Shown one piece after another: positions 5,114-59,741 of a stretch of DNA of 64,000 bases. How positions within the stretch are numbered: the first letter of the stretch is position 1; every line of letters starts with the position of its first letter. A model generated the notes under the pieces. That model was not told the origin of the DNA and did not search any database. It worked only from the letters and a program-made list of their open reading frames with translations. The stretch comes from Chlamydiota bacterium (GTDB taxonomy: Bacteria; Auribacterota; JACPWU01). The translations under genes were made by a program, and so were the position numbers. The stretch covers positions 3,618 to 67,617 of the forward strand of contig JACPWU010000021.1 of assembly GCA_016196885.1 (NCBI GenBank), given 5' to 3'.

Positions 5114-5164
5114 CTTAATTTTTTGTGACAATCCTTGAGGAGGTTTCGGTAAGCCGTATGAATA

Positions 5165-5237
5165 GGGGCAAGGGTCAAGAGTCAAGAAAAAACACTAAAT
5201 TGATTATTCTTGACCCATGACCCATGACCCTTGCCCC
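5165..5237. repeat. Long hairpin in the lpxI-lpxA intergenic region (ggggcaagggtca...tcaagaa arms)
   Basis: About 24-bp arms ggggcaagggtcaagagtcaagaa / ttcttgacccatgacccatgacccttgcccc. Confidence 0.45.
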
Positions 5238-5275
5238 TCGCAAGAGAAATACAAACAACACTTCACCCTACAACA

Positions 5276-14346: not shown

Positions 14347-14410
14347 ACACACCTCCTTTTCCGAGCCGGCGGCTTTTAATATTTAACAGTTATACGCCCT
14401 CGATGGCCCT

Positions 14411-14515
14411 GGTAGTCGCCCGATTCATCGGGCAATCCCTTGTAGTCACCCGATTCATCGGGCAAGATCCATGCAAGGGGCAAGGGACACGGCCCCATCC
14501 ATGGGGCGACTGCAA
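14411..14515. repeat. Degenerate A-family fragment in the ssb-rpsF intergenic region
   Basis: Two tandem cgcccgattcatcgggcaa hairpin modules plus ccatggggcgactgc. Confidence 0.5.
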
Positions 14516-21547: not shown

Positions 21548-21618
21548 TTGAACCTTTATTGAATGAGATCCTTCGCTTCACCCAGGATGACACCTCGTGT
21601 CACCTTTAAACTTTCTTT
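21548..21618. repeat. Leader repeat D2 (immediately 5' of hisG); A1 inserted at its distal end
   Basis: About 80 percent identical to D1; TGACAC-ctc-GTGTCA inverted repeat about 60 nt upstream of the hisG ATG. Confidence 0.55.
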
Positions 21619-21751
21619 TAGGCATATGCACTTGATTCCCCTCAGATAGAAAGAATTTGTAGTCGCCCCATTTATGGGGCAGCCTTGTGCCCCTTGCATG
21701 GATTGCCCGATGAATCGGGCGACTACTAGGGGAATCAAGTGCATATGCCTA
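21619..21751. mobile_element. MITE family A, copy A1 (133 bp; TIR TAGGCATATGCACTTGATTCCCCT; 8-bp TSD ctttcttt)
   Basis: Imperfect palindrome with terminal inverted repeats and two internal hairpin modules (cgcccgattcatcgggcg and gccccatttatggggc); flanked by identical 8-bp direct repeats. Confidence 0.75.
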
Positions 21752-22445
21752 CTTTCTTTTTATAAAAATCACAACAGGCGCGAATCACACACCTGGGGCA
21801 TCTGGGGTTTTTAACCTTGCAGGTGACTCGGCCATGTTTCATCAATTGAGAATGCAAACTCAATACCAAATATCGTGGCGCAACACAATGAATAACTTCT
21901 TGAACCGCTTCCAAAGGGGCATGATTCCACACCCATCCCAACCTTTTTGAAACCCGCTCTACATGAGTATCTATGGGCATGACAGGCCGATTCAGGGAAT
22001 ACAAAAGAACATGGCTGGCCGTTTTCACCCCAATCCCTTTTAGAGAAAGAAGATATTTTAAAGCCTGGGCTTCCTCCATTTCTCTCAAGAAATCCAGTGA
22101 CAACTCTTTTCGGTCCCGATAAATACGTCCTAAAATTCTTCTGATTCTTAAAGCCTTGGTGTGATTCAAACCGCCTTTTTGAATGGCCGAAGAAATTTCT
22201 CCCACGGGAGCTGCCATCAAACCTTCCCAATTCCTGAATTTCTTTTTCAGCCTTTCAAAAGCCTCTTGGGAGTGAAGAGGTGTGGTGTTCTGCGCAAGAA
22301 TGGTGAACACCAGTTCGTCAAGAGGACCTTTTTTTCCGTCCCGAACCAGACGTCCATGCTTTTCTTGCAGCAAATCATGGACTTTCATCACATTCATTCG
22401 AATGCGCTTTTGATCCTCTGGGGTCAGTTCTAAATTCATAAGCAC
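21735..22445 (-). CDS. nth: HhH-GPD endonuclease III-like DNA glycosylase with 4Fe-4S cluster loop
   Basis: HhH motif LKGIGVKTASHVL and cluster motif CKVKNPRCPRC; last four codons plus stop are supplied by the A1 MITE terminus. Confidence 0.7.
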   Translation of the reverse strand: MLMNLELTPEDQKRIRMNVMKVHDLLQEKHGRLVRDGKKGPLDELVFTILAQNTTPLHSQEAFERLKKKFRNWEGLMAAPVGEISSAIQKGGLNHTKALRIRRILGRIYRDRKELSLDFLREMEEAQALKYLLSLKGIGVKTASHVLLYSLNRPVMPIDTHVERVSKRLGWVWNHAPLEAVQEVIHCVAPRYLVLSLHSQLMKHGRVTCKVKNPRCPRCVIRACCDFYKKKVGICT

Positions 22446-24737: not shown

Positions 24738-27419
24738 ATGAAAATCAATCTCGAAAAAATCCTGAGTCATGCCCAAGCTGAACTCCGCGTCCTTCCTCAG
24801 GGAGGAGATCAAGATTGGACTCGCCTCTTCAAAAAATTTCTTCACGTTGAGAACCATCGCCTTCTCATGGCCCATCGGTATGGAGCAGAAGGCCTCACCC
24901 TCATTCAAAACCGAAGCCATCTCATGGATATTTTGGTGAGGCATATTTTTGAATTGGCGCAAAGAGAGTACGCGATTCAACACGAGAGACCCCCCGTCAA
25001 AATGGCCCTGATTGCCCTGGGAGGCTACGGACGCCAAACCCTCAATCCCTGCTCGGACATTGACATTCTTTTTTTGGCGAAACAATCCTTGCAAACGCCC
25101 GAGGATCAAATTCTAAAACGCATTCTTTATCTTCTCTGGGACATTGGGCTCAAAGTGGGACAAGCGGTGAGAACCATTCCTCAAACAATCGAAGAGGGAA
25201 ATCGCGATTTTAAATCTCGGACCGCGATGATGGAGGCCCGTTTCATCACGGGAGATGAATCCCTTTTTGAAGAATTTCAAAAGCTCTTTTCCAAAAAATG
25301 TTCATCCCTTCGCATCGCAGATTATGTAGCCTTTAAACTTGAAGAGATCAAGACGCGCCATCAGAAATATCAGGGAACCGTTTATTTGCAAGAACCCCAC
25401 GTGAAAGAAGGCGTGGGGGGCTTAAGAGACATCGCCTCGATTCTTTGGCTTTATCAAGCCCTGAAGGGGTACCGAAGCTTTGAAGAACTTTTGGAACATC
25501 GCCTTATTTCAGAAAAAGAATTCAAGATCATCCAGAAATCCCTCAACTTTCTTCACCGCGTTCGAAATGAACTTCATTTTCTTTCTGGAAAATGTTTCGA
25601 CATTCTTTCCGTTCCCCTGCAGCCTAAGGTCGCGAGAAATCTAGGCTACCGTGACACACCGATTCTCAAAATGTCTGAATCCTTCATGAAGGATTATTAC
25701 CTTCATGTTCGAAACATCCATCAAATCACGCAAATGTTCCTTTCCCGAGACGAGATTCAAACCCAGCTCAAAATCCCTTTCCCCCAAAAATTCGTTCAGC
25801 GCCATGGGTTCTCATTCACCGCGGAAGAAATTTTTCCGGGAGAAAATCCAAATCTTTTCAGAGAAAATCCAGCCAAACTCTTCGAAGTCTTTCTCTACTG
25901 TGCCCAAGGCAATGACTCCCTCAGTCAAAGCTTAATTCAGCAAATTCGAGAGCATCTCTTTTTGGTGAATAAAAAAATACAAAGCTCTTCAGAAATATTG
26001 AATCACTTTGTTTCCCTCATGAGCTATGAAAGCCCCATTTCCAAAGCCCTTCGGGCCATGCATGATACAGGATTGCTTGGAAAGTATATTCCAGAATTCG
26101 GGAAGGCCACTTGTTTTGTTCAGCATGATTTCTATCATAAATACACCCTCGACGAACACACCTTGAAAGTGATCGAGTTTCTGGACGAACTTAAAACCAC
26201 ACAAGATCCCCGACAGCAAGGATTCTCGAAATTATTTAAGGAAATTCAAGAGCGGGACGTGCTTTTCCTCTCGGCCCTTTTTCATGACATTGCCAAAACC
26301 CAAGGTCATAACCATGCTGTGAATGGGGCTAAAATGGTGCAAGTGATTTTCGAGAGAATGCCTTACGACCCTATGAAGGCCGAGCGCGTGCGGCTCCTGG
26401 TCGAGCAACATCTGGTCATGTCTCATCTGTCGCAAAGAAGAGATCTCTCGGAAGAAAAAGTGATCATTGATTTTTCACAAAAGGTGGTGGATGTAGAAAA
26501 TCTAAAAATGCTTCAGCTCTTGACTTTTGCGGACTGGCGGGCGACCAGCGAAGACGTTTGGACTGAATGGCGAGAGGCCCTTTTATGGGAGCTTTTTTAT
26601 AAAACCAAGCGCTACCTGGAAGAAAAGGTGATTTTGCTCCCCTCAGAGATAGATGCCATGAAGGAATCGCACCTCGAGATTCTCACCCAAAAGGGCTTCT
26701 CTCGAGAGACCCTTATAAACCATCTGGAAACGCTGCCCGTCCATTATCTTCAGGCGTATCGTTCTGAAACCATCGCCGAACATATCAAGATGATTGAAGC
26801 ACTTCAAAATCAAGACCCCCAAATCCATTGGGACTATCATGAAAAAACCAATGTCACGGACCTGACCATCTGCACGCGAGATCATCTGGGACTTTTTTCG
26901 GAAATGGCGGGGGTGATTGCAAGCCAAGAAGTGAACATTTTGAGCGCTCATATCTTCACGCGAAAAGATGGTTTCATTCTGGATAAATTCTCCCTGGAAA
27001 ACCGTTACGAAAAGGGCATGCTCGACGAGCGGACACGTCAGAAAGTGGAAGAAGGAATGAGGAAGGTTTTGAAACGCACGGTGACGGTGGAAAGCTTTTT
27101 AAGGGCCCACACATCTCAAAAAATGACTGCCAAGAAGGCACAAGCCTTGATTAAATTTGACAACGAAACCAGCCTTGCCACCACTGTCGTGGAAATTCAA
27201 ACGGATGATGAAGTGGGATTTCTCTATAAGGTCACGCGAACGTTTTCAAAGCTGGGACTCAACATTCACCTGGCCAAAATTGCGACGGAAAAAGCTCAAA
27301 TATTGGATGTCTTTTACATCACCGATTTTGACGGAAAGAAAATTGACCACCCCAAGGTTCAAAAAGCGATTCAAGAAGAGCTTCAAAAAGCCATCCAAAG
27401 CCCGTTGGAAGAGATTTAA
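24738..27419 (+). CDS. glnD: Bifunctional [protein-PII] uridylyltransferase/uridylyl-removing enzyme
   Basis: 893 aa; NTase motif GGYGRQTLNPCSDIDILF, HD domain (FHDIAKT), two C-terminal ACT domains. Confidence 0.8.
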   Translation: MKINLEKILSHAQAELRVLPQGGDQDWTRLFKKFLHVENHRLLMAHRYGAEGLTLIQNRSHLMDILVRHIFELAQREYAIQHERPPVKMALIALGGYGRQTLNPCSDIDILFLAKQSLQTPEDQILKRILYLLWDIGLKVGQAVRTIPQTIEEGNRDFKSRTAMMEARFITGDESLFEEFQKLFSKKCSSLRIADYVAFKLEEIKTRHQKYQGTVYLQEPHVKEGVGGLRDIASILWLYQALKGYRSFEELLEHRLISEKEFKIIQKSLNFLHRVRNELHFLSGKCFDILSVPLQPKVARNLGYRDTPILKMSESFMKDYYLHVRNIHQITQMFLSRDEIQTQLKIPFPQKFVQRHGFSFTAEEIFPGENPNLFRENPAKLFEVFLYCAQGNDSLSQSLIQQIREHLFLVNKKIQSSSEILNHFVSLMSYESPISKALRAMHDTGLLGKYIPEFGKATCFVQHDFYHKYTLDEHTLKVIEFLDELKTTQDPRQQGFSKLFKEIQERDVLFLSALFHDIAKTQGHNHAVNGAKMVQVIFERMPYDPMKAERVRLLVEQHLVMSHLSQRRDLSEEKVIIDFSQKVVDVENLKMLQLLTFADWRATSEDVWTEWREALLWELFYKTKRYLEEKVILLPSEIDAMKESHLEILTQKGFSRETLINHLETLPVHYLQAYRSETIAEHIKMIEALQNQDPQIHWDYHEKTNVTDLTICTRDHLGLFSEMAGVIASQEVNILSAHIFTRKDGFILDKFSLENRYEKGMLDERTRQKVEEGMRKVLKRTVTVESFLRAHTSQKMTAKKAQALIKFDNETSLATTVVEIQTDDEVGFLYKVTRTFSKLGLNIHLAKIATEKAQILDVFYITDFDGKKIDHPKVQKAIQEELQKAIQSPLEEI

Positions 27420-27446
27420 CCCAGATTTTGCAATAGACGCGAGAAC
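27417..27446. repeat. Half-copy G2 (taacccagattttgcaatagacgcgagaac) overlapping the glnD stop codon
   Basis: Exact reverse complement of the right 30 bp of G1. Confidence 0.6.
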
Positions 27447-28433: not shown

Positions 28434-28790
28434 TAGCCCACGTTTCATCTGAAAATAGTCTTTAGTTATTCTTATACAATAAGTTATGATGACTTGTAGT
28501 CGCCCGATTCATCGGGCAGCCCCATAAATGGGGCGACTACAAGGGTGATTTTCATCCCCCTTTGTGACGGACAGTCATGGCCGCGCGAGGAACGCCTGAG
28601 TCCGCCTTGGATGCGAGGAAGACGCTCCGTGCCATGTGAGGCGTATTTTACAGTACGTCGAGCACGGCCGACCTCTCTTGCGACGCCAGACGAGGCGGAC
28701 TTGGCGCTCGCAGCAGAAATGTGATGAGAAATGTGGGCCAGAAGAAAGATTTCTCAGTCGGGCATCCCGATGTAGCATCGGGATGCTCTT
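28434..28790. repeat. Composite repeat C1 (~355 bp: arm containing an A-core hairpin pair plus ~160-bp palindromic core)
   Basis: Arm tagccc(a/g)cgtttcatctgaaaatagtcttta...gtagtcgcccgattcatcgggcagccccataaatggggcgactacaagggtgattttcatccccctttgtgac...agtcatggcc is shared with C2 in inverted orientation; the core is shared in direct orientation. Confidence 0.65.
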
Positions 28791-30573: not shown

Positions 30574-30593
30574 AATAAAATTTTCCTTGAGAA

Positions 30594-30746
30594 GTGGGTG
30601 GTCCGACTGGGGGTCCCCCGACAAGCGCCAGCAGGTGGAGTCAACGGCTTCTAACAATAACCTATCAAGAACTGACCCGACACCGACCCCACAGGGGGGC
30701 TATAACCTCTGTGCCGTTGTCGGGGGTGAGGAGGAACAGGACCCAC
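30594..30746. repeat. Structured element family B, copy B1 (tsaC-sufT intergenic)
   Basis: Shares ccgactgggggtccccc...cgccagcaggtggag...cgaccccacagggg(g)ctataacctctgtgccg...gggggtgaggagg with B2 and B3; helix segments differ between copies but stay complementary. Confidence 0.7.
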
Positions 30747-30755
30747 TTCTCATCT

Positions 30756-31304
30756 TTAAAACCCCAACTGCAACTTCGCCGCCTCTGACATCATGCTCAT
30801 ATTCCAAGGGGGATCCCACACCCATTGCACATCGGCGTCTCTCACCCCTGGAATGCTTAAAATCTTGGTCTTTGCATCGGTCGCAAGGATAGACCCCATT
30901 CCGCAACCTGGCGCCGTCAAAGTCATTTTAACTTCAACCTTATTTCCACCTTCAGCCAAAGGCATGACACGGCAATCATAAACCAAACCCAACTCTACAA
31001 TATTAATGGGAATCTCGGGATCAAAACAGGTTCTTAATTGATCCCAAACCATTTTTTCAATATCCGCCCCCTCTGAAGCTTGAGGAGCTCTTGCCTCTGG
31101 TGGAATTTCTTTTCCAAGCGCGTCTGCATCCTTTCCCTCAATTCTCACCATGTAAAGCTCAGGCGTAATCACCGTGTAAGAACCGCCCAAAGTTTGAGTG
31201 AGGGTGACCACCGAGCCACAACGCAGCATCATGGGCGTCCCATCCGGTATCTGAATAGCCGGGCAGTCCCGCGTTAAACTAACTCGTTCTTGTGTTTTCA
31301 TCAT
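30756..31304 (-). CDS. sufT: SufT-like Fe-S assembly protein (DUF59/MIP18) with about 75-aa N-terminal extension of unknown family
   Basis: C-terminal DUF59 region MVWDQLRTCFDPEIPINIVELGLVYD...APGCGMG; sits inside the suf cluster; flanked on both sides by B-family structured elements. Confidence 0.6.
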   Translation of the reverse strand: MMKTQERVSLTRDCPAIQIPDGTPMMLRCGSVVTLTQTLGGSYTVITPELYMVRIEGKDADALGKEIPPEARAPQASEGADIEKMVWDQLRTCFDPEIPINIVELGLVYDCRVMPLAEGGNKVEVKMTLTAPGCGMGSILATDAKTKILSIPGVRDADVQWVWDPPWNMSMMSEAAKLQLGF

Positions 31305-31323
31305 TCACTCTACCTCCAACAAA

Positions 31324-31472
31324 GCGGGTGTCCCGACTGGGGGTCCCCCACTGTGCGCCAGCAGGTGGAGTCCTACATCTCCTTACTTCCATATGTGACT
31401 TTCCCGACACCGACCCCACAGGGGCTATAACCTCTGTGCCGACAGTGGGGGTGAGGAGGGACAGGCCCCGCT
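31324..31472. repeat. Structured element family B, copy B2 (sufT-sufU intergenic)
   Basis: As B1; terminal helix gcggg/cccgc and internal helix actgtg/cacagt. Confidence 0.7.
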
Positions 31473-31479
31473 ACCTTAA

Positions 31480-31941
31480 TTACACATTATCCTCTGTCGT
31501 CACGGCCTGACCCCTTTTTCCCAGGGCTGCCTTCAAGGTATGCCAAGCCAGCGTGGCACATTTTACCCGTGTGGGATATTCCGAGACACCGGAAAAAACA
31601 GCCAATTTACCCAGTAATTTTAAATCGAAACCAGCGTTTGTCGGACCCGAAAGCATTTTGTGAAAATTTTGGAACAATAGAAGAGCCTCCTGCTTCGTCT
31701 TGCCTTTTACCCCTGTCGTCATCATCGATGCCGAGGATTTCGAAATTGCGCAACCCGATCCTTGAAAACCGATGTCCTGGATTTGATCCCCTTTCATTTG
31801 CAAATAAAGATTCAGACGATCCCCACACAAAGGGTTATAGCCTTCCGCCACATGATCCGCATTTTCAATCGCATGAAAGTTGCGGGGATTTTTGTTATGA
31901 TCCAAAATCATTTCTTGATAGAGTTCATTTAATTCGCTCAT
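31480..31941 (-). CDS. sufU: SufU/IscU-like Fe-S scaffold (NifU N-terminal domain)
   Basis: NPLCGD...GSGCAISKSSASMM...EYPTRVKCATLAWH contains the three conserved Cys. Confidence 0.7.
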   Translation of the reverse strand: MSELNELYQEMILDHNKNPRNFHAIENADHVAEGYNPLCGDRLNLYLQMKGDQIQDIGFQGSGCAISKSSASMMTTGVKGKTKQEALLLFQNFHKMLSGPTNAGFDLKLLGKLAVFSGVSEYPTRVKCATLAWHTLKAALGKRGQAVTTEDNV

Positions 31942-33233
31942 CCAAAAATCTCCGTCACATGCCCAAGCGCCTCAACCATCACGTCAATTTCAGAGCGAGT
32001 ATTGTAAAGCGCAAAAGAGGCCCTCACCGTAGCAGGAACCCCCAGAAAATCCATGAGCGGCATGGTACAGTGATGCCCCGCTCGCAGTGCCACCCCGGCT
32101 CGATCCAACACGGTTCCTACATCATGGGCATGAACAAGGTCAAAGACAAAGGAAACAATGCCAGCGCGATCAGAGGGTTCTCCCACCAAACGCAAAGTCG
32201 GCACCGATAAAAGCAATTTCACACCATAAGTTACAAGATCTTTTTCATGCACCGCGATCGCCTCCAAACCCACACTTCGAATGTAATCCAAGTAAAGCGT
32301 CTTCTCAAATGTGACACGGCTGATCATGTCACCGCCTCCCTGATAGGGCGGCATTTTTTCAAGCCGTTCTTTCTTTCCATAAAGAACGCCAATGCCCGTG
32401 GGACCATAAATTTTATGCCCCGAAAAAACATAAAAATCTGCGTCCAGCACCTGCACATCCACTTTTAAATGGGCCACTGCTTGGGCCCCATCTACCAAAA
32501 CAGGAATACCTTTGGCATGGGCCATTTGAATCATTTTTTGGACAGGATTCACCGTCCCTAGTGCATTGGAAACATGAACGATCGAAACTAATTTTGTCCG
32601 AGCATTCAAAAGTCGCTCATATTCCTCTAATAAAAGTTCACCCTTCTTATTGATAGGAATGACGCGCAGCTTCGCACCCATTTGCTCACACAACATTTGC
32701 CAAGGAACAATGTTGGAATGGTGTTCCATTGCAGAAATCAAAATTTCGTCACCCGCTTTTAAAAAAGTGCGCCCGAAACTTTGTGCAACCAAGTTAATGG
32801 CCTCCGTTGTTCCACGTACGAAAACAATCTCACACACCTCTTTTGCATGGATGAAGCGTTGAACTTTCCCCCGAGCCGCTTCATAATCCTGCGTGGCCCT
32901 TTCGCTCAAAAAATGAATGCCGCGATGAATATTCGCATTCTCATCTGAATAATATTGATTCAGAACGTCAATGACCCACAGAGGTTTTTGCGTCGTCGCT
33001 GCATTGTCCAAATAAACGAGCGGCTTCCCATAAATTTTCTGCCTCAAAATGGGAAAATCCTGCCGCAGCCTCTTGACATCGAGAGAGGATGGACATAACG
33101 CACTACCTGATACATCGTTAACCCCTCCAACTCCCCTTGGATAACGGGAGAACTCCCCTCTTATTCTAAGAGGGGCTGGGGGAGTTAATTCATTTTCACC
33201 CTTTGAATGGGCCATTTTTCCCCTTGCCTTCAT
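31938..33233 (-). CDS. sufS: Cysteine desulfurase SufS (start uncertain; about 50-aa N-terminal extension overlaps repeat E1)
   Basis: Class V aminotransferase with DFPIL entry motif, SGHK PLP lysine and RAGHHC active-site Cys. Confidence 0.75.
   Translation of the reverse strand: MKARGKMAHSKGENELTPPAPLRIRGEFSRYPRGVGGVNDVSGSALCPSSLDVKRLRQDFPILRQKIYGKPLVYLDNAATTQKPLWVIDVLNQYYSDENANIHRGIHFLSERATQDYEAARGKVQRFIHAKEVCEIVFVRGTTEAINLVAQSFGRTFLKAGDEILISAMEHHSNIVPWQMLCEQMGAKLRVIPINKKGELLLEEYERLLNARTKLVSIVHVSNALGTVNPVQKMIQMAHAKGIPVLVDGAQAVAHLKVDVQVLDADFYVFSGHKIYGPTGIGVLYGKKERLEKMPPYQGGGDMISRVTFEKTLYLDYIRSVGLEAIAVHEKDLVTYGVKLLLSVPTLRLVGEPSDRAGIVSFVFDLVHAHDVGTVLDRAGVALRAGHHCTMPLMDFLGVPATVRASFALYNTRSEIDVMVEALGHVTEIFG
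33147..33188. repeat. Repeat E1 (gggagaactcccctcttattctaagaggggctgggggagttaa) inside the 5' extension of the sufS ORF
   Basis: Shares (a)agagggctgggggagtta with E2; contains hairpin cccctctta-ttc-taagagggg. Confidence 0.5.
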
Positions 33234-34510
33234 AGCAACCTTCCCAACAACACCTCCTCCACCCTCTGCCGCACCGGCTCCAGCCGAATCTGATCCGTCA
33301 CTTCATGCATAAACCCATAGGTTAAAAGCCTTCGAGCGGCTGCCTCCCCCAACCCTCGGGTCTTCAAATAAAAAAGGGGCTCTTCTTCCAATTGACCCAC
33401 AGCAGCTCCATGCGTACACTTCACATCATCCGCCAAAATTTCCAATTGGGGTCTTGTGTCCACTTTGGCATCCTTTGAAAGCAAAAGATTTTGATTGGTC
33501 TGCTGTGCATCCGTTTTTTGAGCGCCGTGCCTCACCAAAATCTTTCCATAAAAAACGGCCGTGGACCGCCCCGACAAGACGCCTTTATAAAGCTGACGGC
33601 TGGTTCCCTGAGGAAAGGCATGATCCACAAAAGTGGTGTTATCCACATGCTGGCCTTCTTCTGTCCAATAAAGCCCATTTGAAACACACTCACTGCCTTC
33701 CCCGCGAAGGGTCATATTTAAATCATTGCGAACCAACTTTCCAGAAAGGGTGGCAACGGCATGAGAAAAAAAACTGTTCCGTTCTTGGTTCACATAAGAA
33801 GACCCGATGTGAAATGCTTTTCCCCCTTGTTTCTGGATTTGAATCAACTCTAGCCTGGCCCCTTCTTTCAAAACCATTTCTGTTAAAGGACTCGAGAAAT
33901 AAACTTCTCCATCCAACCCCACATGACTTTCCACCACGGTCGCTTCACTGTGCTCATTCAACACGAAAAGATTTCTTGGGAAAATGGCCTCAGGCCTCTG
34001 GCAAGAATAAATAAAAAGAAAATGAATCGGATGCTGGATTTTAGCCCCTTTCGGAATTTCCAAAAAAAGCCCCTCTTGAAAAAGAGCCGTGTTTAAAGCA
34101 TCCAACGGCTTTTCTTTTCTCTCTTGGTCGAAATATTTTTGAAAACTTTTTTCATGGACAGCTTCTCTTAAAGATTTTATCTGGAGCCCTTGAGATTTTC
34201 GGGAAAGAGACTCCGTATAAAACCCATTCACAAAAACCAAACGGTCTGCGGGTAAATCTTCTAAGAAGAGAGGCCCTGGGGAGAGAGGCAAAGAAGGAGG
34301 GTGAAAAGAAATTTCGTAAGGGGTATTCACCACCTGTGAAACATCCGTATATTTCCACTCTTCCCTCTCTTGAGTCGGGAAGCCCAGAGGGGAAAATTGG
34401 TCAAAGGCTTTTTGACGAAGGGCTCGAAGGAAAGAGCCCTCCTTTTGCCTTTGAAGAAATTCAAAGGCTGAAACAAAAGAATCCATTTTAGAAACGAACC
34501 CAGCGCTCAC
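33230..34510 (-). CDS. sufD: Fe-S cluster assembly protein SufD
   Basis: 426 aa right-handed beta-helix SufBD family member between sufC and sufS. Confidence 0.75.
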   Translation of the reverse strand: MSAGFVSKMDSFVSAFEFLQRQKEGSFLRALRQKAFDQFSPLGFPTQEREEWKYTDVSQVVNTPYEISFHPPSLPLSPGPLFLEDLPADRLVFVNGFYTESLSRKSQGLQIKSLREAVHEKSFQKYFDQERKEKPLDALNTALFQEGLFLEIPKGAKIQHPIHFLFIYSCQRPEAIFPRNLFVLNEHSEATVVESHVGLDGEVYFSSPLTEMVLKEGARLELIQIQKQGGKAFHIGSSYVNQERNSFFSHAVATLSGKLVRNDLNMTLRGEGSECVSNGLYWTEEGQHVDNTTFVDHAFPQGTSRQLYKGVLSGRSTAVFYGKILVRHGAQKTDAQQTNQNLLLSKDAKVDTRPQLEILADDVKCTHGAAVGQLEEEPLFYLKTRGLGEAAARRLLTYGFMHEVTDQIRLEPVRQRVEEVLLGRLL

Positions 34511-35290: not shown

Positions 35291-35329
35291 CAACCTTTGA
35301 ACTTTTGAACCCTTAAACTTTTGAACCTT
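35291..35329. repeat. Tandem-repeat element H1 (GGTTCAAAAGTT units) in the sufB-sufC intergenic region
   Basis: caacctttgaacttttgaacccttaaacttttgaacc. Confidence 0.45.
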
Positions 35330-35332
35330 TTT

Positions 35333-38410: not shown

Positions 38411-38498
38411 CCCTCCCTCTGAAAAGAATTCATATGAAAAGAACTCACAAATGATACTATCTTTAAAAAGAGGAGCAAGTCCTTTTTTAAATTTTTAA

Positions 38499-38631
38499 TA
38501 GGCATATGCACTTGATTCCCCTAGTAGTCGCCCGATTCATCGGGCAATCCATGCAAGGGGCACAAGGCTGCCCCATCAATGGGGCGACTACAAATTCTTG
38601 CTATCTGAGGGGAATCAAGTGCATATGCCTA
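38499..38631. mobile_element. MITE family A, copy A2 (133 bp, inverted relative to A1; 8-bp TSD atttttaa), inserted at the left terminus of element B4
   Basis: Near-identical to the reverse complement of A1; flanked by atttttaa on both sides. Confidence 0.75.
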
Positions 38632-38803
38632 ATTTTTAAAAGTGTGTCCTTTATTCATGCGGGTGACACCCAACAGGGTCCCCATCAAGTGCCAGAAGAA
38701 AGAGTCATTTGCATCAGCCATACATCTGGCATCCCTCATCGAGACCGATGCCGTTGATGGGGTGGTTGGGCGGCAGGACCCGCCCCCTTTCCAAAGGACA
38801 CAC
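38632..38803. mobile_element. MITE-like element B4: same outer TIRs as B3 but a different ~110-bp structured core
   Basis: TIR aaaagtgtgtccttt...aaaggacacacttttaaatac; subterminal gcgggtg...cccgcc; internal long-range complement cccaacagggtccccatcaa / ttgatggggtggttggg. Confidence 0.6.
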
Positions 38804-38940
38804 TTTTAAATACATCATCATCAAAAATAGGTAGACACTTCTAGGAAAAATTATGAGATAATTCGAACAAAGAAGGAGTCTCGACCCTGAAACGAATTTT
38901 CATATTCTTAAGCATTTTTCTTCTTTCAGCCTCTCTGGCC

Positions 38941-39639: not shown

Positions 39640-39762
39640 AGGTGATATAGATATTCTCTGATAAGGGCAAACTATCCGTAAGGATAGGACGCAAAGCCAT
39701 GGGCCCCTGGGTAGCTAGGGAGGGGGGTCGCCAGGTTGCCGGAGCATAGGCTGAAGAGTCAA
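39640..39762 (+). promoter_or_regulatory. Candidate c-di-GMP-I (GEMM) riboswitch aptamer
   Basis: GGGCAAAC, then 5-bp stem with GUAA (GNRA) tetraloop, then GGACGCAAAGCC, then a second GC-rich hairpin. The junction strings and stem length match the Vibrio cholerae Vc2 aptamer as recalled from memory. Confidence 0.6.
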
Positions 39763-40229: not shown

Positions 40230-43200
40230 ATGATGAAGTCCAACTGGATGAAGAGGGGGATTGTGTCATGCATCTTGGGAGTGGGGTTGTGGGGAAGCGC
40301 CAGTCTCTTTTCATTTTCTGATGAAGAAAAGAAATACGCCCCCGATGAATTGCTCGTCCGCTATAAACCAGGGGTTTCGAGTGCCCAAATCCGGCAGTTG
40401 AGAAAGGCCATCCATGCCGAACGTCTCGAGAAGTTTTCCATCAATGATGTGCAGCATTATAAACTCGAGGCCGGTCAGTCTCTTCAAGAAGCTCTTTCAG
40501 AGTTAAAGGGTTCCTCCAAAGTTCTTTACGCAGAACCCAATTATGTTGTGGAGTTAAATCAAACCCCCAACGATCCCGACTTTTCCAAACTCTACGGAAT
40601 GAATAACACCGGCCAGACCGGCGGTACAGCTGACGCCGACATTGATGCCCCCGAGGCTTGGAATACACAGACTGGAAATCAGAACCTCGTGATCGCGATT
40701 ATTGATACGGGCGTGGACTACAACCATCCGGATCTGGCAGCAAATATCTGGACCAATCCCAAGGAAATTGCAGGCAACGGCATAGACGATGACGGCAACG
40801 GTTACGTGGACGATATTCATGGTTGGGATTTTTATAACAAGGACGCCGATCCCATGGATGATCATTACCATGGCACTCACGTAGCGGGCACCATTGCAGG
40901 AGTGGGCAATAACGGCATCGGTGTGACAGGCGTGGTCTGGAAAGCCAAGATCATGGCACTTAAATTCTTGAGCTCGGGTGGATCGGGATACACTTCAGGT
41001 GCGATTTCGGCGATCAATTATGCCACTCAAATGGGCGCAAAAATTTCCAATAACAGCTGGGGGGGCGGGGGCTATTCGCAGGCCTTGAAAGATGCCATCA
41101 CGGCCAATCAGAATGCAGGGGCTTTGTTTGTAGCCGCTGCAGGAAATAGCGGCGTCAATGCAGACACTTCTCCCATGTATCCCGCGGCTTATGACGTGGC
41201 CAATATTATTTCTGTGGCTGCGACGGACGCTAAAGATCAATTGGCCTCTTTTTCAAATTATGGAAAAACCAGCGTGGATTTAGGGGCCCCGGGGGTGAGT
41301 ATTTACAGCACTGCTCCCAACAACACGTATAAAACCTTAAGTGGGACTTCCATGGCAACCCCTCATGTCGCGGGAGCGGTCGCCTTAATCTGGTCTCAAT
41401 TTCCGAGCCTGACGAATCTTCAGGTGAAAGATAAATTGCTCGTCTCCACAGATCCGATTTCAGCCCTGTCTGGAAAAACGGTGAGCGGGGGAAGGCTCAA
41501 CATCAATAATTTTATGGAGAATGACACGACGGCCCCGGCCCCTGTCACTAATTTAGCCACTTCCAGCGTTTCCTATTTTACCACCACACTCACGTGGACA
41601 GCGACGGGAGACGATGGTTTCACAGGACAGGCAAGCACCTATGATTTGCGCTATTCTACGAGTGCCATCACAGAGTCTAATTTTTCCTCGGCCCTTCAGG
41701 CGTCCGGGCTCCCCTCACCTAAGACTTCAGGACAGACAGAGACTTTTAAGGTGACAGGACTTTCTTCCAACACGGCTTATTATTTTGCACTCAAGGTGAA
41801 GGACAACGTGGGAAATACTTCTTCCCTTTCGAATGTGATTTCAGCCACCACCTCTCAGGGAACCACTTTCTACCAGGATAATTTTGAGAATGGCCAGGGA
41901 AGTTGGGTCACAGGAGGAACAAACGGCACGGGTGGAGGGACCTTGTGGCATCTTTCAACCCGTAAATCCAACAGTGCGACCCATTCCTTCTATTATGGCA
42001 GTGAGTCCAAGGGTAATTACAACACAGGACAAGCCAATTATGGTTGGATCACTTCTCCCAAAATTTATTTAACCTCGGCTACCAATTCCACTTTGATTTT
42101 TAACCACTATCTGACGACGGAGAATCTGGCCCCCTATGATGAAGGAAGTGTCAGAATTTCAACAGACGGCGGATCCACTTTTACAACGCTCAACAAATTC
42201 TATTCAACCAGCTCAAAATGGCAACAGGTTTCCGTAGATCTTTCGAAATATGATGGGAAAACCGTCTACATTCAATTTTATTTTACGACGCTGGACGCGC
42301 TCTACAACAGTTATGAAGGTTGGTATGTGGACGATGTGCAGGTGATGGCAGATGGGCAAGGTGACACCACACCTCCTGCCGCGATCAGTAATTTGGCAAT
42401 TTCTTCTCTGGGTCAATATTCCCTGACATTGAACTGGACGGCGACAGGAGACGATGGGAATACGGGAACAGCCTCTTTCTACGATTTACGCTACTCCACG
42501 AGCACCATCACAGATTCCAACTTTTCTTCGGCCGTTCAAGTCTCAGGCCTCTCTTCCCCGAAGGCGGCCGGAAATTCCGAATCCTTTGAAGTGAAGAATC
42601 TTTCCAGTGGAGTCACTTATTATTTTGCGATCAAGGCCACGGACGATCTTTCCAATACCTCCGCTATTTCAAACGGGGTGAATGGAAAAACAAAAACGGG
42701 ACCCAAAATCAGCGTGTCTCCCAGCACCCTTGCGAAAGTCAGTTTGGATGTTGGGAAATCAACCACACAGTCCCTGACGATCCAAAACACAGGCGATGAA
42801 AATTTGACATTTGACATCACAGAAATTCCGACAACCACCGCCAGCAGTGCTGAATCTTCCTCCTCTTTGGAAACGGGATCGAGCGCGTCAGCTGCCTATG
42901 CACCTTCCCAAATTTTGGTGAAATTTAAAGAGGGCCTGTCTGAGGCAGCCATTCATGGACTCGGAGATTCAGTGGACGCAAGAACCGTTAAAATTTATTC
43001 CGACATTGATGTCCATTTGATTGAAACCGCTTCAGGATTGGATGCCCAGGAAATGGCCAGAATGTACCTGGCGAGCGGCTTGGTAGAATATGCAGAACCC
43101 AATTATGTTGTTCAAGCCTTAAGTACCTTCCCCAACGATTCTTCTTTCTCTCAACTCTACGGCCTTCACAACACAGGACAAACGGGGGGAACCGCAGATG

Positions 43201-46200
43201 CGGACATTGACGCCCCTGAGGCCTGGGACACTACAAAGGGGGCAAGCTCGGTCGTGGTGGCAGTGATTGACACGGGTGTAGATTACACACATCCTGACTT
43301 ATCAGCCAACATGTGGACAAACTCAGGAGAAATCCCAAACAATGGATTGGACGATGACGGAGATGGTTATGTGGACGACTATCGAGGATGGGATTTTGTG
43401 AACGAAGACAATGATCCTATGGATGACAATAAGCATGGCACACACGTTTCCGGAACCATTGGTGGAGTTGGAAACAACGGTACAGGCGTCGCCGGTGTTT
43501 GTTGGAACGTCAAAATCATGCCTCTTAAATTCTTAAGTGGGAGTGGGTCTGGATACACCTCGGATGCAGTCGAGGCCGTTCTTTACGCCAATAAAAAAGG
43601 TGCGAATGTGATGAGCAACAGCTGGGGCGGCGGCGGATATTCTCAGGCCCTGTATGACGCTATTAAAGCGGCCGAGGTGAAAGGCATTCTCTTCGTAGCC
43701 GCCGCGGGAAATAGCTCGAGCAACAATGATCAAGTGGCCAATTATCCCTCGAATTACAACATCTCGAACGTCATTGCCGTCGCAGCCACAGATGCGAACG
43801 ATGCCCTGGCCTGGTTTTCAAATTATGGAGCGAACACGGTTCATTTGGGCGCCCCGGGGGTCAGCATCTATAGTACCCTGCCGGGAAACACCTATGGCTC
43901 TTTGAGTGGAACTTCCATGGCGACCCCCCATGTAGCTGGGGCTTGTGCCCTCGTGTGGTCCGCGAATCCTTCCTGGAATTATGCGAAAGTGAAAAATCAG
44001 ATCATGGTGGGCACAGATAAAATTTCGAGCATGAGTGGTAAAACAGTTTCAGGCGGTCGGCTGAATGTTTACAAAGCCCTTCAAGCGGCAGAAACCACGC
44101 CTCCCTCAGCCGTCACCGATTTGTCCAGCTCCATGGTTTCTTTTTCCACCCTTAAACTTAAATGGACGGCAACGGGGGATGATGGCAATACCGGAACAGC
44201 CACCTCTTACGAGATTCGTTATTCTACAAGTTCTATCACGAGTTCTAACTTTAGTTCCGCTACGTTGATCAGCAATACCCCCACACCCAAATCTGCTGGA
44301 GGGGCTGAAGAATTCAACGTCACAGGCCTTTCCCAAAAGACAACTTATTACTTTGCCATGAAAGTGACCGATGATGCCAGCAACACCTCTGGCCTTTCGA
44401 ATGTGACCTCTGCCACCACAGACGAAGCGGTGGTAACCTACTTGGATAGCATGGAAACAGGAGCCGGATGGACGGTGACAGGCTTGTGGCATCTTTCCAC
44501 ACGAAAATCTAACAGCCCCACGCATTCTTTCTATTATGGAGACGAGACCAAAGGAAATTACGATACAGGTTCTACCACCCAAGGGACGCTGACATCCTCT
44601 ACCATCGACCTTTCATCGGGGGTCACGCCTCAACTCTCTTTTCAATATTGGAGAAAAGTGGAGTCGGGAGGGATCTATGACAAAACCTATTTAGAAATTT
44701 CAAAAGACAATGGCTCCAATTGGACCCAGCTTTGGTACAAGAACTCCAGCAACACCTCTGAACAAGCCTGGACCAGTTCTGGACCCTTGGATTTAAGCTC
44801 TTACAAAGGCGCTAAAGTCCTTTTGAGATTTACCTTTGATTCTGTGGATGCCTACTTGAATTTTTATGAAGGATTCTACGTGGATGATGTTCAAATCTTG
44901 GATTCAAAAACAGATTTTAACTGGCTCTCCGTGCAACCAGCAACAGGAACCTTAACAGCCAATCAATCTAGCACCGTGACCTTAACCTACACAGCCGTTT
45001 CTAGCGGAACTTACAAAGGAGCCATTCTGATTAAGAGCAATGACCCTGCCAAACCCTCTACCACCCTTTCTCTAGAGTTGACAGCCACTCAAGACACAAC
45101 AGCCCCCTCCGCCATCAGCAATTTAAAAGTTGCCTCCATTGCCAGCAGCAACACCTCTCTAACCCTGACATGGACAGCGCCAGGCGATGACGACAACGTG
45201 GGAACGGCCAGCTCTTATGAAATTCGCTACTCTACAAGCCTCATAACAGATGCTAATTTCAGCGCGGCCACTTTGGCTCCAAATCCACCCACGCCCCAAG
45301 TCGCGGGAAGCACTGAAACCTTCAGCCTGACAGGGCTCGCCCTTTCACAAAATTATTATTATGTTGCGATCAAGACCCAGGACGATGTGGGGCAAGTTTC
45401 TAGCCTCTCCAATGTGGTCAAGACGAGTGACTTGGATTCCGATGGGGACGGGTTGTGCGACCAAGATGAGTACAGCATGGGCACAGATCCTCTCAAGTCA
45501 GATACAGATTCCGATGGGTTCAGCGATGGCCAGGAAAAATCGATTGGGACGGATCCTGTGAAGAGCACAGATTTCCCAGCCACGATTATTCTGACATGCG
45601 ACAATGCCTATGAAATTTACATCAATGGTGTCTTCAAAGGGAATGACTCTAATTGGACAAACAAAGAAACATATTATGCAAAGTTAGGAGACACCATCGC
45701 CATTAAAGGCATAGATCTCGGCGGCATTGCAAGTCTCCTTTGCCAAATCAGCCATGGAAATAAAATCATGCCTTCCAATTTTCTCTGGAAGGCTTCACCT
45801 CAAGCCGCCTCGGGCTGGACAAATCCAAACTTTGACGACTCTTCTTGGCCAGGTGCAGTAGAACATTTTGCATACGGACATGGGCCCTGGGAACAATGGG
45901 TGAACGGATTTGACGCCAGCAACAATTGGATCTGGACGAATCGGCCGGAGGAACATGATACTGTCTATTTTCGGCGGAAGGTGGACTTTTCACAAAATGC
46001 CCTCTTACGGGTTACGGCAGATAATGCCTTTGAAGCTTGGCTGGATGGTCAATACCTGGGATCCAGCAATGTGTGGCATCTGCCCAAATTTTTTATTGGG
46101 ACTGTCAGTGAAGGCAGCCTCATCGCCCTTCACGGGATAGACCTGGGAGGGATAGGAGGACTGCTTGCCTCTCTTACCTACGTGGACTCGAATGGAAAAA

Positions 46201-47336
46201 GGCAAATGGTAGGAACCAACTCCTCATGGAAAATAAGTACCACATCCTCCTCGGGCTGGCAAAACACAGGCTTTGACGAAAACAGCTGGTCCTCAGCGAC
46301 AGAGTGGGCTGCCTTCGGAAGTGGGGTGTGGGGTTCTTTTGACATGGGTGCCCATTTTTCGAATGCAAGCCAAGCCAAGTGGATTTGGGCCTCGGACCCC
46401 TATTCTATCGATGACATCTATGCGAGAAAAACGATCCTCACCCCCAACGCAACACTCAGCATGACGGCGGACAACAAGTTCAAAGTTTATCACAATGGGA
46501 ACCTCGTTGCCTCCAGCTCCCAATGGTGGTCCCCCGCCGTCGTCGGTCTTAATAATCTCCAAAATGGAGACGTCATTGCTGTGAGGGCCGATGATGAAGG
46601 AGGCATTGCAGCGTTTCTTGCAAAGCTGGACTTTAATGGAACTCAAATCTTCTCAAATACAACATGGAAGGCCTCCACAGGACCTTTCTGGGAAGCAGAC
46701 CTCTCTTGGACGTCAAAAAGCTATGACGACTCGAACTGGACAAGCGCCTTCCCAGTCGGAGGCAACGGAATATCCCCGTGGGGATATTTGTCTGACTGTG
46801 GGAGTGCGCAATGGATTTGGGCCTCATCAGACACGGACGGTGTCAACACCTCTTTTTTTAGGTGGACGGTGGGAACCAACAATACAGAAGTAGGTGTAAC
46901 CTCTTTTCTGGTCAGCGCAGACAATGAATACAAGTTCTACAAGAATGGTGTGCTCATCACATCAGGAAGTCGGTGGTATATGCCGGAGAGCTTCACATGT
47001 TTATTATCCCCTGGGGATGTCATTGCGATCGAGGCAAGAGATTATGGTTATAAAGCGGGACTTTTGCTCTACGCCTCCGGGGCTTATAACCTCGTCTCGG
47101 ACAGCTCTTGGAAAATGAGTACCACCGAACAGTCGGGAGGATGGGCGAGTAAAACATTTGACGACTCTGGCTGGGCTTCAGCCAGTGATCACGGGGCCTA
47201 CGGCATTGCACCTTGGGGAAGCAATGCTTCAGGATTCCCAACCAGTTCTTCAGCTCGTTGGATTTGGGGCCCCAACAATCAGACTGGGGCAACAAACATT
47301 GATTCCCACGTCTTCTTCAGAAAGAAAATTGCTTAA
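40230..47336 (+). CDS. 2368-aa secreted multidomain protein with two complete propeptide(I9)-subtilisin(S8) units, Fn3-like and MAM/lectin-like jelly-roll domains, thrombospondin-type-3-like Ca-binding repeats and four C-terminal ~150-aa beta-sandwich repeats
   Basis: Signal peptide; catalytic triads present twice (IDTGVDY(N/T)HPDL, HGTHV(A/S)GTI, GTSMATPHVAG); repeated LxWTAxGDDGxxGxAxxYxxRYSTSxITxxNFSSA modules; DSDGDG motifs; repeats containing WIW and FDDSxW. Confidence 0.8.
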   Translation: MMKSNWMKRGIVSCILGVGLWGSASLFSFSDEEKKYAPDELLVRYKPGVSSAQIRQLRKAIHAERLEKFSINDVQHYKLEAGQSLQEALSELKGSSKVLYAEPNYVVELNQTPNDPDFSKLYGMNNTGQTGGTADADIDAPEAWNTQTGNQNLVIAIIDTGVDYNHPDLAANIWTNPKEIAGNGIDDDGNGYVDDIHGWDFYNKDADPMDDHYHGTHVAGTIAGVGNNGIGVTGVVWKAKIMALKFLSSGGSGYTSGAISAINYATQMGAKISNNSWGGGGYSQALKDAITANQNAGALFVAAAGNSGVNADTSPMYPAAYDVANIISVAATDAKDQLASFSNYGKTSVDLGAPGVSIYSTAPNNTYKTLSGTSMATPHVAGAVALIWSQFPSLTNLQVKDKLLVSTDPISALSGKTVSGGRLNINNFMENDTTAPAPVTNLATSSVSYFTTTLTWTATGDDGFTGQASTYDLRYSTSAITESNFSSALQASGLPSPKTSGQTETFKVTGLSSNTAYYFALKVKDNVGNTSSLSNVISATTSQGTTFYQDNFENGQGSWVTGGTNGTGGGTLWHLSTRKSNSATHSFYYGSESKGNYNTGQANYGWITSPKIYLTSATNSTLIFNHYLTTENLAPYDEGSVRISTDGGSTFTTLNKFYSTSSKWQQVSVDLSKYDGKTVYIQFYFTTLDALYNSYEGWYVDDVQVMADGQGDTTPPAAISNLAISSLGQYSLTLNWTATGDDGNTGTASFYDLRYSTSTITDSNFSSAVQVSGLSSPKAAGNSESFEVKNLSSGVTYYFAIKATDDLSNTSAISNGVNGKTKTGPKISVSPSTLAKVSLDVGKSTTQSLTIQNTGDENLTFDITEIPTTTASSAESSSSLETGSSASAAYAPSQILVKFKEGLSEAAIHGLGDSVDARTVKIYSDIDVHLIETASGLDAQEMARMYLASGLVEYAEPNYVVQALSTFPNDSSFSQLYGLHNTGQTGGTADADIDAPEAWDTTKGASSVVVAVIDTGVDYTHPDLSANMWTNSGEIPNNGLDDDGDGYVDDYRGWDFVNEDNDPMDDNKHGTHVSGTIGGVGNNGTGVAGVCWNVKIMPLKFLSGSGSGYTSDAVEAVLYANKKGANVMSNSWGGGGYSQALYDAIKAAEVKGILFVAAAGNSSSNNDQVANYPSNYNISNVIAVAATDANDALAWFSNYGANTVHLGAPGVSIYSTLPGNTYGSLSGTSMATPHVAGACALVWSANPSWNYAKVKNQIMVGTDKISSMSGKTVSGGRLNVYKALQAAETTPPSAVTDLSSSMVSFSTLKLKWTATGDDGNTGTATSYEIRYSTSSITSSNFSSATLISNTPTPKSAGGAEEFNVTGLSQKTTYYFAMKVTDDASNTSGLSNVTSATTDEAVVTYLDSMETGAGWTVTGLWHLSTRKSNSPTHSFYYGDETKGNYDTGSTTQGTLTSSTIDLSSGVTPQLSFQYWRKVESGGIYDKTYLEISKDNGSNWTQLWYKNSSNTSEQAWTSSGPLDLSSYKGAKVLLRFTFDSVDAYLNFYEGFYVDDVQILDSKTDFNWLSVQPATGTLTANQSSTVTLTYTAVSSGTYKGAILIKSNDPAKPSTTLSLELTATQDTTAPSAISNLKVASIASSNTSLTLTWTAPGDDDNVGTASSYEIRYSTSLITDANFSAATLAPNPPTPQVAGSTETFSLTGLALSQNYYYVAIKTQDDVGQVSSLSNVVKTSDLDSDGDGLCDQDEYSMGTDPLKSDTDSDGFSDGQEKSIGTDPVKSTDFPATIILTCDNAYEIYINGVFKGNDSNWTNKETYYAKLGDTIAIKGIDLGGIASLLCQISHGNKIMPSNFLWKASPQAASGWTNPNFDDSSWPGAVEHFAYGHGPWEQWVNGFDASNNWIWTNRPEEHDTVYFRRKVDFSQNALLRVTADNAFEAWLDGQYLGSSNVWHLPKFFIGTVSEGSLIALHGIDLGGIGGLLASLTYVDSNGKRQMVGTNSSWKISTTSSSGWQNTGFDENSWSSATEWAAFGSGVWGSFDMGAHFSNASQAKWIWASDPYSIDDIYARKTILTPNATLSMTADNKFKVYHNGNLVASSSQWWSPAVVGLNNLQNGDVIAVRADDEGGIAAFLAKLDFNGTQIFSNTTWKASTGPFWEADLSWTSKSYDDSNWTSAFPVGGNGISPWGYLSDCGSAQWIWASSDTDGVNTSFFRWTVGTNNTEVGVTSFLVSADNEYKFYKNGVLITSGSRWYMPESFTCLLSPGDVIAIEARDYGYKAGLLLYASGAYNLVSDSSWKMSTTEQSGGWASKTFDDSGWASASDHGAYGIAPWGSNASGFPTSSSARWIWGPNNQTGATNIDSHVFFRKKIA

Positions 47337-51274: not shown

Positions 51275-51396
51275 AAAATAATGATACATGGCTTATACAA
51301 AAGAAAGCAAGATTTTTGATGAGCAAAATTAAGAAATCCGCCTTTTTTATTGTGGGTGACTCTGAAAGGGTCCCTCCAAGTTATTCTGGAAATTGA

Positions 51397-51844
51397 TTGT
51401 AGTCGCCCCATTTATGGGGCCATGCATGGATTGCCCGATAAATCGGGCGACTACGCTTGACGGATCAAGAATACTTGAGCCAAGTCCATATGCCAAAATT
51501 TATTTCTCCGACAGGCTCCTAGCCCGCATTTCTCATCAGATTTCGTCGCGAGTCCGCCTAAGGTGGATTGGAGGGGAGGTTGCACGACTGAGGCCATGCG
51601 AGGCATACCTTACAGTATGTTGAGCGTGGCCGACCGAGTCTGCACGGAGGGACGAAGCGGAATCGGAGAAGAGCGGCAGAAATCTGACGAGAAACGGCCA
51701 TGACTTTCAGTCACAAAGGGGGATGAAAATCACCCTTGTAGTCGCCCCATTTATGGGGCTGCCCGATGAATCGGGCGACTACAAGTAATCATAACTTATT
51801 GTATAAAAATAAGTAAAGACTATTTTCAGATGAAACGCGGGCTA
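51397..51844. repeat. Composite repeat C2 (inverted-arm copy of C1, with an extra A-core hairpin at its left end)
   Basis: Core gcatttctcatcagatttcg...ttacagtatgttgagcgtggccgacc...gcagaaatctgacgagaaac followed by the reverse-complemented C1 arm; overlaps the stop of the hypothetical secreted-protein gene. Confidence 0.65.
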
Positions 51845-57201: not shown

Positions 57202-57242
57202 AACCCTTGGACGTTTGAACTTTTCAACCCTTAAACTTTTTT
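57202..57242. repeat. Element H2 between the HTH gene and mnmE
   Basis: aacccttggacgtttgaacttttcaacccttaaacttttttt, similar to H1. Confidence 0.45.
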
Positions 57243-59375: not shown

Positions 59376-59458
59376 AGGCCCTCCATTTCCTACGTAAAGT
59401 CTACATGATGTTATCCTCAAGGTCAACCTCTAAAGATTCACCTACTTGCTAAGATCGT

Positions 59459-59663
59459 GTATTTAAAAGTGTGTCCTTTTATGGATGCGGGTGGCCCGAC
59501 TGGGGGTCCCCCGCTGATCGCCAGCAGATGGAGAACATGGACCTCTCGTTACATTCAAAACCCAACCGACATCGACCCCACGGGGGCTATAACCTCTGTG
59601 CCGTCAGCGGGGGTGAGGAGGGACAGGACCCGCCTCCTCTTAAAAGGACACACTTTTAAATAC
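59459..59663. mobile_element. Family B copy B3 with outer 22-bp TIRs GTATTTAAAAGTGTGTCCTTTT / AAAAGGACACACTTTTAAATAC (MITE-like), upstream of the Phd-PIN module
   Basis: B core at 59487..59634 flanked by perfect terminal inverted repeats. Confidence 0.65.
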
Positions 59664-59741
59664 AGCATCCTTGCTAACGTCCCCTTAAAATTCTATCATT
59701 CATGAACAAAAGTCGTTGCTAAAGAGGGAGAAAGAACTTTA

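Follow-up and report, generated by a model that had tools for sequence, protein, structure and literature searches.

What are the two ~150-nt repeats that bracket sufT within a suf operon, and do they serve that operon? The question is raised by a 64,000-nt stretch (hereafter the window) of a Chlamydiota bacterium genome (GenBank assembly GCA_016196885.1, contig JACPWU010000021.1, positions 3,618 to 67,617), for which an earlier note had described three ~150-nt copies of a structured element, here called family B. The three copies (A, B, and C) were confirmed, and the search for more copies added a fourth, diverged copy, D, recovered by a repeat search and by a profile trained on A–C alone (E = 5e-6). 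The four known copies, each 125–153 nt long, all intergenic and all in the plus orientation (Table 1), lie within the ~80 kb of the genome that was read; ~15 kb of this sequence beyond the window contained no further copy. We interpret family B as a lineage-specific, non-coding, structured miniature mobile element, of the type represented by transposable elements of the miniature inverted-repeat kind (MITEs), bcr1, or ERIC, and assign this interpretation a probability of roughly 60%.

The copies are recognizable by short, strongly conserved blocks. The sequence CCGACTGGGGGTCCCCC occurs three times exactly in the window and four times when up to three mismatches are allowed, compared with 0.18 expected from shuffles. 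Likewise, GCTATAACCTCTGTGCCG and GGGGGTGAGGAGGGACAGG each occur three times (0.01 and 0.03 expected from shuffles, respectively), and CGCCAGCAGGTGGAG occurs three times with zero or one mismatch. The exact blocks common to A–C are 15–21 nt long. Identity among these copies is 92–93% in the conserved blocks and falls to the random level in a 5-bp helix segment and in a 31–35-nt apical segment. The cores have a G+C content of 58–64%, versus 43–49% for the window. All reading frames are interrupted by indels, and a search with the concatenated open frames against a 5.8-billion-sequence collection (E up to 1) returned no protein homologue of any of them, which rules out a small protein gene.

RNAalifold, applied to the four copies, predicted the same architecture on either strand: a long interrupted stem (P1/P1b), an asymmetric loop, a helix P3, and then a three-way junction. 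The core has the consensus ends GYGGGT...ACCCRC. The closing helix P1 reads GTGGGT/ACCCAC in A, GCGGGT/ACCCGC in C and D, and GCGGGT/CCCCGC in B, and is lengthened by copy-specific complementary bases (GAGAA/TTCTC in A and GGA/TCC in C). It is followed by the short helix P1b (YCC/GGR) and by the conserved asymmetric internal loop, in which GACTGGGGGT faces TGAGGA. P3 is a 10-bp helix, with a freely varying 5-bp segment flanked by constant CCCCC/GGGGG. The conserved blocks in A–C had all been described as single-stranded, which holds only in part, given this CCCCC/GGGGG pairing. At the junction, P4 (GRTG/CAYC) is capped by a variable loop of 31–35 nt, next to a short conserved hairpin (CACAGGGG/CCTCTGTG). 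In copy D, a GGCATC/GATGCC hairpin replaces the latter, and the architecture is otherwise kept.

The variable segment of P3 is complementary in every copy: CCCCCGACAA/TTGTCGGGGG in A, CCCCCACTGT/ACAGTGGGGG in B, CCCCCGCTGA/TCAGCGGGGG in C, and CCCCATCAA/TTGATGGGG in D. All five pairs change (GACAA, ACTGT, GCTGA, ATCAA), each time with the exact complement. The earlier note had correctly recognized this complementarity, but two of its 6-mers, cacagt (B) and atcagc (C), are absent from the sequence, and the paired core is 5 bp long. In the terminal helix, for which it had also noted covariation, C:G is replaced by T:A in A; the 3′ side of B reads CCCCGC. Two further compensated changes had been missed, one in P1b (TCC/GGA in A versus CCC/GGG in B and C) and one in P4 (GGTG/CACC in A and B versus GATG/CATC in C).

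In this sample of only four sequences, 11 of the 36 pairs are changed on both sides, and 94% of the cells are paired. None of 500 shuffles reached these two values, and sliding the 3′ partners by 1–3 columns left at most four double-changed pairs. Of the differences that A–C show within their conserved blocks, more than half are themselves compensated pairs. The compensated pairs, together with the shuffle and slide controls, indicate that the fold is under selection, as had been proposed, with covariation in the four copies beyond chance. The folding energies are ordinary relative to same-composition shuffles on either strand (z from -1.8 to +0.5, not significant), so that the covariation alone carries the case for structure.

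All informative pairs are Watson–Crick on both strands; the covariation is therefore silent on which strand is selected and on whether RNA or single-stranded DNA is the folded form. The G-U evidence is contradictory. The CACAGGGG/CCTCTGTG hairpin of A–C has G-U pairs only on the plus strand, the second one in copy C arising through an A-to-G change, while copy D has several pairs that are G-U on the minus strand only. Independent small RNA genes transcribed from the plus strand, antisense to the genes around them, would account for the former pairs and for a promoter-like TTAACC-16-TAAAAT (9/12) that ends 12 nt before copy A. We nevertheless consider such genes very unlikely, as no covariation supports the hairpin, with which another pairing competes, and the copies share no promoter- or terminator-like site. 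The conserved internal loops, in turn, are asymmetric and non-complementary, a pattern that simple DNA correction between the arms of a palindrome cannot account for. Something would have to read these loops.

The flanks of copy C carry hallmarks that are classic for a miniature element that has transposed, namely 34-nt inverted arms and a perfect 8-bp duplication outside them. The terminal sequence of this outer shell is GATSSTGTATTTAAAAGTGTGTCC. A shell also surrounds copy D, and the inner part of its arms is identical to that of copy C at 21/21 positions. The covariation in family B is best read as the mark of a structured mobile repeat rather than that of a regulator resembling a riboswitch. 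The fold and the constant loops would be needed for copying of the element, and copying would be limited to element lineages that still fold, with selection acting among these lineages. Such a limit would explain both the covarying helices and the constant loops, the latter being recognized by a mobilizing protein.

Several observations weigh against this interpretation. Copies A and B have no arms, only a closing helix of 5–11 bp, and no direct repeats of at least 6 nt at their borders. Neither a transposase nor another mobilizing gene was found in the ~80 kb, the known copies number four, and none is known outside the source genome. The relatives compared are distant, the closest having 65% SufT identity. 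Moreover, the arms of C and D are ~90% identical while their cores share ~55–70% per block, and core C is 92–93% identical to the naked cores, a combination that would not be predicted if the MITEs had the simple history of one family. It implies that two core subfamilies entered the shell apex independently, or that cores were swapped by recombination. Finally, a functional RNA would likewise be compatible with unpaired loops conserved almost perfectly beside variable segments that are saturated. The 5-nt direct repeats beside A (TAAAA) and B (TACCT) were set aside, since their borders are not comparable and they are likely chance matches in AT-rich flanks.

Table 1. Positions of the family B copies, their shells and helices, the suf genes, and a second repeat family in the window.
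Feature	Position	Strand	Context or remark
Copy A core	30594..30746	+	sufT-tsaC spacer (30574-30755)
Copy B core	31324..31472	+	sufU-sufT spacer (31305-31479)
Copy C core	59487..59634	+	Between yidC and antitoxin/PIN pair
Copy D, diverged fourth copy	38659..38783	+	Between fatty-acid desaturase gene and zinc-ribbon gene
Copy A helices	P1 30594-30599/30741-30746; P1b 30602-30604/30733-30735; P3 30615-30624/30717-30726; P4 30634-30637/30681-30684	+	
Copy A P1 extension	30589-30593/30747-30751	+	GAGAA/TTCTC
Copy A variable apical loop	30641-30675	+	
Copy B helices	P1 31324-31329/31466-31471; P1b 31332-31334/31458-31460; P3 31345-31354/31442-31451; P4 31364-31367/31408-31411	+	
Copy B variable apical loop	31371-31402	+	
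Copy C helices	P1 59487-59492/59628-59633; P3 59508-59517/59604-59613; P4 59527-59530/59570-59573	+	P4 is GATG/CATC
Copy C variable apical loop	59534-59564	+	
Copy C shell, left arm (terminal inverted repeat)	59453..59486	+	GATCGTGTATTTAAAAGTGTGTCC...; 28/34 identical to reverse complement of right arm
Copy C shell, right arm	59636..59669	+	34-nt inverted repeat
Left 8-bp direct repeat, CTTGCTAA	59445..59452	.	Read as target-site duplication of copy C shell
Right 8-bp direct repeat, CTTGCTAA	59670..59677	.	Perfect match to left copy
Copy D shell, left arm	38634..38658	+	Outer part missing at border with REP-type repeat 38483-38632
Copy D shell, right arm	38786..38819	+	AAAGGACACACTTTTAAATAC identical to copy C arm
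sufB, sufC, sufD	sufD 33230-34510	-	suf operon
sufS	31938-33233	-	suf operon
sufU	31480-31941	-	suf operon
sufT	30756-31304	-	suf operon
Sua5/TsaC gene (tsaC)	Start codon at 30573	-	Downstream of sufT
Pseudouridine synthase gene		-	In same gene row as suf genes and tsaC
Second repeat family, units	21618-21767; 38483-38632; 28434-28583; 51695-51844		
Second repeat family, fragments	14392-14489; 51392-51454		

The last of these objections leads to an alternative in which family B is a new mobile functional RNA, its three-way-junction core being catalytic, or a partner or guide of a mobilizing enzyme, and needed in cis for spread. A self-spreading RNA would explain why A and B are naked, without terminal repeats or target duplication, and why two diverged core subfamilies sit at the apex of the same palindromic shell, a position that hints at insertion into hairpin tips. 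The bimodal conservation, with identical 15–21-nt blocks beside random-level segments, agrees with it, as do the retention of the architecture in the diverged copy D and the internal loops, whose asymmetry arm-to-arm correction would have erased. The lack of an Rfam match fits a new RNA, but known ribozyme and guide-RNA models do not match either; no recombinase, reverse transcriptase, or nuclease gene lies beside any copy, and only four copies, from one genome, are at hand. A guide RNA of the IS110 bridge RNA or TnpB/IscB ωRNA kind was tried and rejected: the variable loops matched their own insertion sites no better than the sites of other copies or shuffles (p = 0.14–0.80), and gave only chance-level matches against the whole window. 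A guide function is thus unsupported. Taken together, we regard a self-spreading RNA as distinctly improbable. The element would gain in importance if the constant loops proved to be an active site or a protein-recognition site: with a core that moves without classical transposon ends and sits at the tip of another palindromic element, this would point to an undescribed, structure-dependent way of moving.

The arrangement of A and B as two direct copies bracketing one gene also recalls a folded single-stranded DNA recombination site, integron attC-like or Xer-type, with sufT as the bracketed cassette. The imperfect palindrome, the attC-like length, and the variable center would suit such a site, but the RYYYAAC/GTTRRRY core sites are absent from the ends, no integrase is nearby, and the remaining copies bracket no gene. 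Moreover, sufT also follows sufU in relatives and is therefore not a cassette. We hold this explanation to be scarcely credible. A relationship to the IS200/IS605-derived palindromic elements (PATE) was also rejected, as the copies have no common flanking target (left flanks GAGAA, ACAAA, TGGAT, and TTCAT; right flanks TTCTC, TACCT, CTCCT, and CCCCT), and the same orientation in four of four copies is too small a number to count as PATE evidence.

Does the element nevertheless act on the suf genes? The earlier note had placed two copies between the co-directional genes sufU, sufT, and tsaC, and this position is correct. However, the suf genes, like tsaC, are encoded on the minus strand; in the mRNA, the strings that the note gave would thus appear as their reverse complement. 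The sufU-sufT spacer is 175 nt long, of which the copy B core occupies 149; without cores A and B, the two spacers shrink to ~26–29 nt with normal ribosome-binding sites, which we read as insertion of the cores into short spacers. The C-terminus of SufU (VTTEDNV*) is identical to that in a sister metagenome-assembled genome (MAG), GCA_016178055.1, and copy B thus lies wholly within the spacer, outside the coding sequence. No promoter or terminator was predicted on the gene strand within the sufU-sufT and sufT-tsaC spacers. Together with the co-directional genes, this makes co-transcription of A and B in the operon mRNA plausible, judging from gene position. They would then be carried passively, as the reverse complement, on a sufBCDSU-sufT-tsaC mRNA, where they would place a stable structure just upstream of the sufT and tsaC ribosome-binding sites and at most modulate mRNA stability or processing.

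Family B is absent from the suf operons of the sister MAG and of a more distant genome, although both relatives are remote (SufT identities 64–65%). The sufU-sufT gap measures 15 nt in the distant relative; in the sister MAG it is 267 nt long and filled with AT-rich sequence of an unrelated kind, and sufT there abuts the following gene by 1 nt. Downstream of the four copies, read on the gene strand, lie sufT, tsaC, the genes of an antitoxin/PIN pair, and a fatty-acid desaturase gene. Family B is not tied to suf: two of the copies precede the toxin–antitoxin pair and the desaturase. The suf operons of the relatives do without the element. For the same reasons, the lack of a conserved position and the unrelated genes behind the other copies, a riboswitch-like suf regulator was ruled out, and we reject the notion of family B as a dedicated regulator of the suf genes.

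A looser role for the host would be a recruited cis-acting RNA, serving as a stabilizer, a processing site, or an insulator that uncouples sufU, sufT, and tsaC, with each copy under host selection. Its setting has some appeal. Copies A and B lie 15–20 nt upstream of the tsaC and sufT start codons, respectively; the predicted fold leaves the sufT ribosome-binding site unpaired, whereas at tsaC some of the sequence from the ribosome-binding site to the start codon is taken up into an extended terminal stem. The helices are compensated, the spacers lack predicted promoters and terminators on the gene strand, and the three copies that lie between co-directional genes are all oriented alike relative to these genes. 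This 3/3 agreement is, however, not significant, and the downstream genes are unrelated to each other. Relatives manage without the element, its folding energies are ordinary for its composition, and copy C bears transposon-type ends. Host recruitment therefore appears unlikely to us, if conceivable.

Rfam 15 assigned none of the four copies to a family at the gathering threshold, and at E up to 10 only chance-level, sub-threshold matches appeared, in line with the statement that no known riboswitch or ribozyme could be matched. Elsewhere in the window, gathering-level Rfam matches were limited to a tRNA and to a c-di-GMP riboswitch. The latter, a c-di-GMP-I-GGC aptamer (RF03167) at 39657-39744 on the plus strand (67.4 bits; gathering threshold 59), lies upstream of the gene (40230-47336) for a 2368-residue protein that combines fibronectin-type repeats with two subtilase domains.

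In representative genomes of 185,579 species, a set that does not include the source genome, the exact block GGGCTATAACCTCTGTGCC gave three matches, all of them by chance and located in coding or unrelated sequence. A 20-mer gave two matches in JGI metagenomes, both by chance, and two viral-contig scans (including IMG/VR) and plasmid and phage BLAST searches revealed no family B copy. As each exact-match scan used one block and the source genome is outside the collection, the absence of family B elsewhere is weakly established. The protein collection held no relative of SufT above 65% identity, so the lineage is poorly sampled.

Among described repeats, bcr1 of the Bacillus cereus group, one of the bcr1–bcr18 repeats, is the closest analogue. 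It is a ~155-bp transcribed repeat in which compensatory changes keep an RNA structure (PMC3184786), and it shares with family B the features of a non-coding interspersed intergenic repeat, namely compensatory changes, mobile-element properties, and a non-conserved genomic distribution (PMC3184786). The two differ in that bcr1 belongs to another phylum, has no sequence similarity to family B, and is flanked by 5-bp direct repeats, whereas family B has a duplication, of 8 bp, at copy C only. Moreover, bcr1 is transcribed, while transcription of family B would follow from gene position.

The ERIC/IRU elements of enterobacteria and the Correia elements of Neisseria are ~105–160-bp imperfect palindromes in transcribed operon spacers, which form long hairpins in the mRNA and can alter its stability or processing. 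In essence, each consists of a single long hairpin that has terminal inverted repeats and TA or short duplications. Family B differs from both in its three-way junction, its conserved asymmetric loops, and its hypervariable 5-bp segment, and has no sequence similarity to them. Copy C resembles a classic MITE, being small and without an open reading frame, with a 34-nt inverted repeat (28/34) and a perfect 8-bp duplication, in a multi-copy family. Classic MITEs are mobilized in trans by the transposase of an insertion sequence, whereas here the ends belong to the outer shell, which A and B lack, and no parent insertion sequence for the shell was seen in the ~80 kb.

REP and REPIN elements are palindromes tagged by GTAG or CGTC (PMC3733652). 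They are intergenic with compensated stems, as is family B, and are present in the same genome, but REPs are 20–40 nt long with a GTAG or CGTC head. Family B, at 150 nt and with the ends GYGGGT...ACCCRC, lacks a GTAG/CGTC head and was thereby separated from them; such a GTAG head does occur in the window, but in another family. The units of this second family are ~150 nt long, have AGGCATATGCACTTGATTCCCC at their borders in inverted orientation, and each hold a doublet of GTAG-headed REP-type hairpins (GTAGTCGCCCGATTCATCGGGC); pairs of copies are 94–96% reverse-complementary. One of these units abuts and truncates the left arm of the copy D shell, with AATTTTTAA on both its sides. A third palindromic repeat, TTTAACCCAGAATTTGCAATAG...CTATTGCAAAATCTGGGTTAAA, was found at 59735-59830 and 27415-27446. 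A longer copy of it fills the sufS-sufU spacer of the sister MAG (~5060-5250 of the sequence read), so that the two genomes have this family in common and it, too, has reached a suf spacer. At least two further families thus crowd the same intergenic regions of the window, a repeat-rich background.

Independent assemblies provided a further view of the copies. The window coincides with bases 41,989–105,988 of the 121-kb contig JACOUD010000001.1 in the MAG GCA_016178005.1. Two other assemblies of the same organism contain the same copies, and contigs of independent assemblies (runs SRR12113387 and SRR12113416) end in copy B at the same base (31427). Another independent contig ends at 59482, 5 nt before core C, and yet another at 59798. 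Breaks in or beside the copies are expected of repeats. No stretch of at least 31 nt is common to the four known copies, which is why the breaks hint that other parts of the genome may contain additional and closer copies.

Some observations concern the surroundings of the copies. The pair directly downstream of copy C on the gene strand (58675-59375, minus strand) comprises a PIN_3 toxin gene and a gene for a 98-residue antitoxin-like protein, which overlap by 4 nt. SufB of the sister MAG (positions 1-1453) has 835 residues and contains a LAGLIDADG homing-endonuclease domain suggestive of an intein, whereas the window SufB has 477 residues and no such domain. Short AT-rich tandem motifs (TTTTCATTCTTAATTT; ACTTTTGAACCCTTAAAC) are present at 3343-3386, 61651-61694, 35293-35330, and 57203-57240, at minus-strand gene junctions such as sufB/sufC. 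The plus-strand GC skew is negative in 15 of 16 window bins (to -0.25), and the minus strand bears the majority of genes. A location of the window on a single replichore, whose leading strand is the minus strand, is therefore probable, and all four family B copies are oriented alike relative to it.

If family B is indeed a structured miniature mobile element, it would add one more structured miniature repeat family, from an uncultured and little-known lineage (NCBI label "Chlamydiae bacterium"). For annotation, its value would be that these elements are not regulators of suf, and the copies would also serve as markers of repeat-driven breaks in metagenome assemblies. It would further be a warning that covariation within a single genome does not, alone, imply a regulatory RNA.

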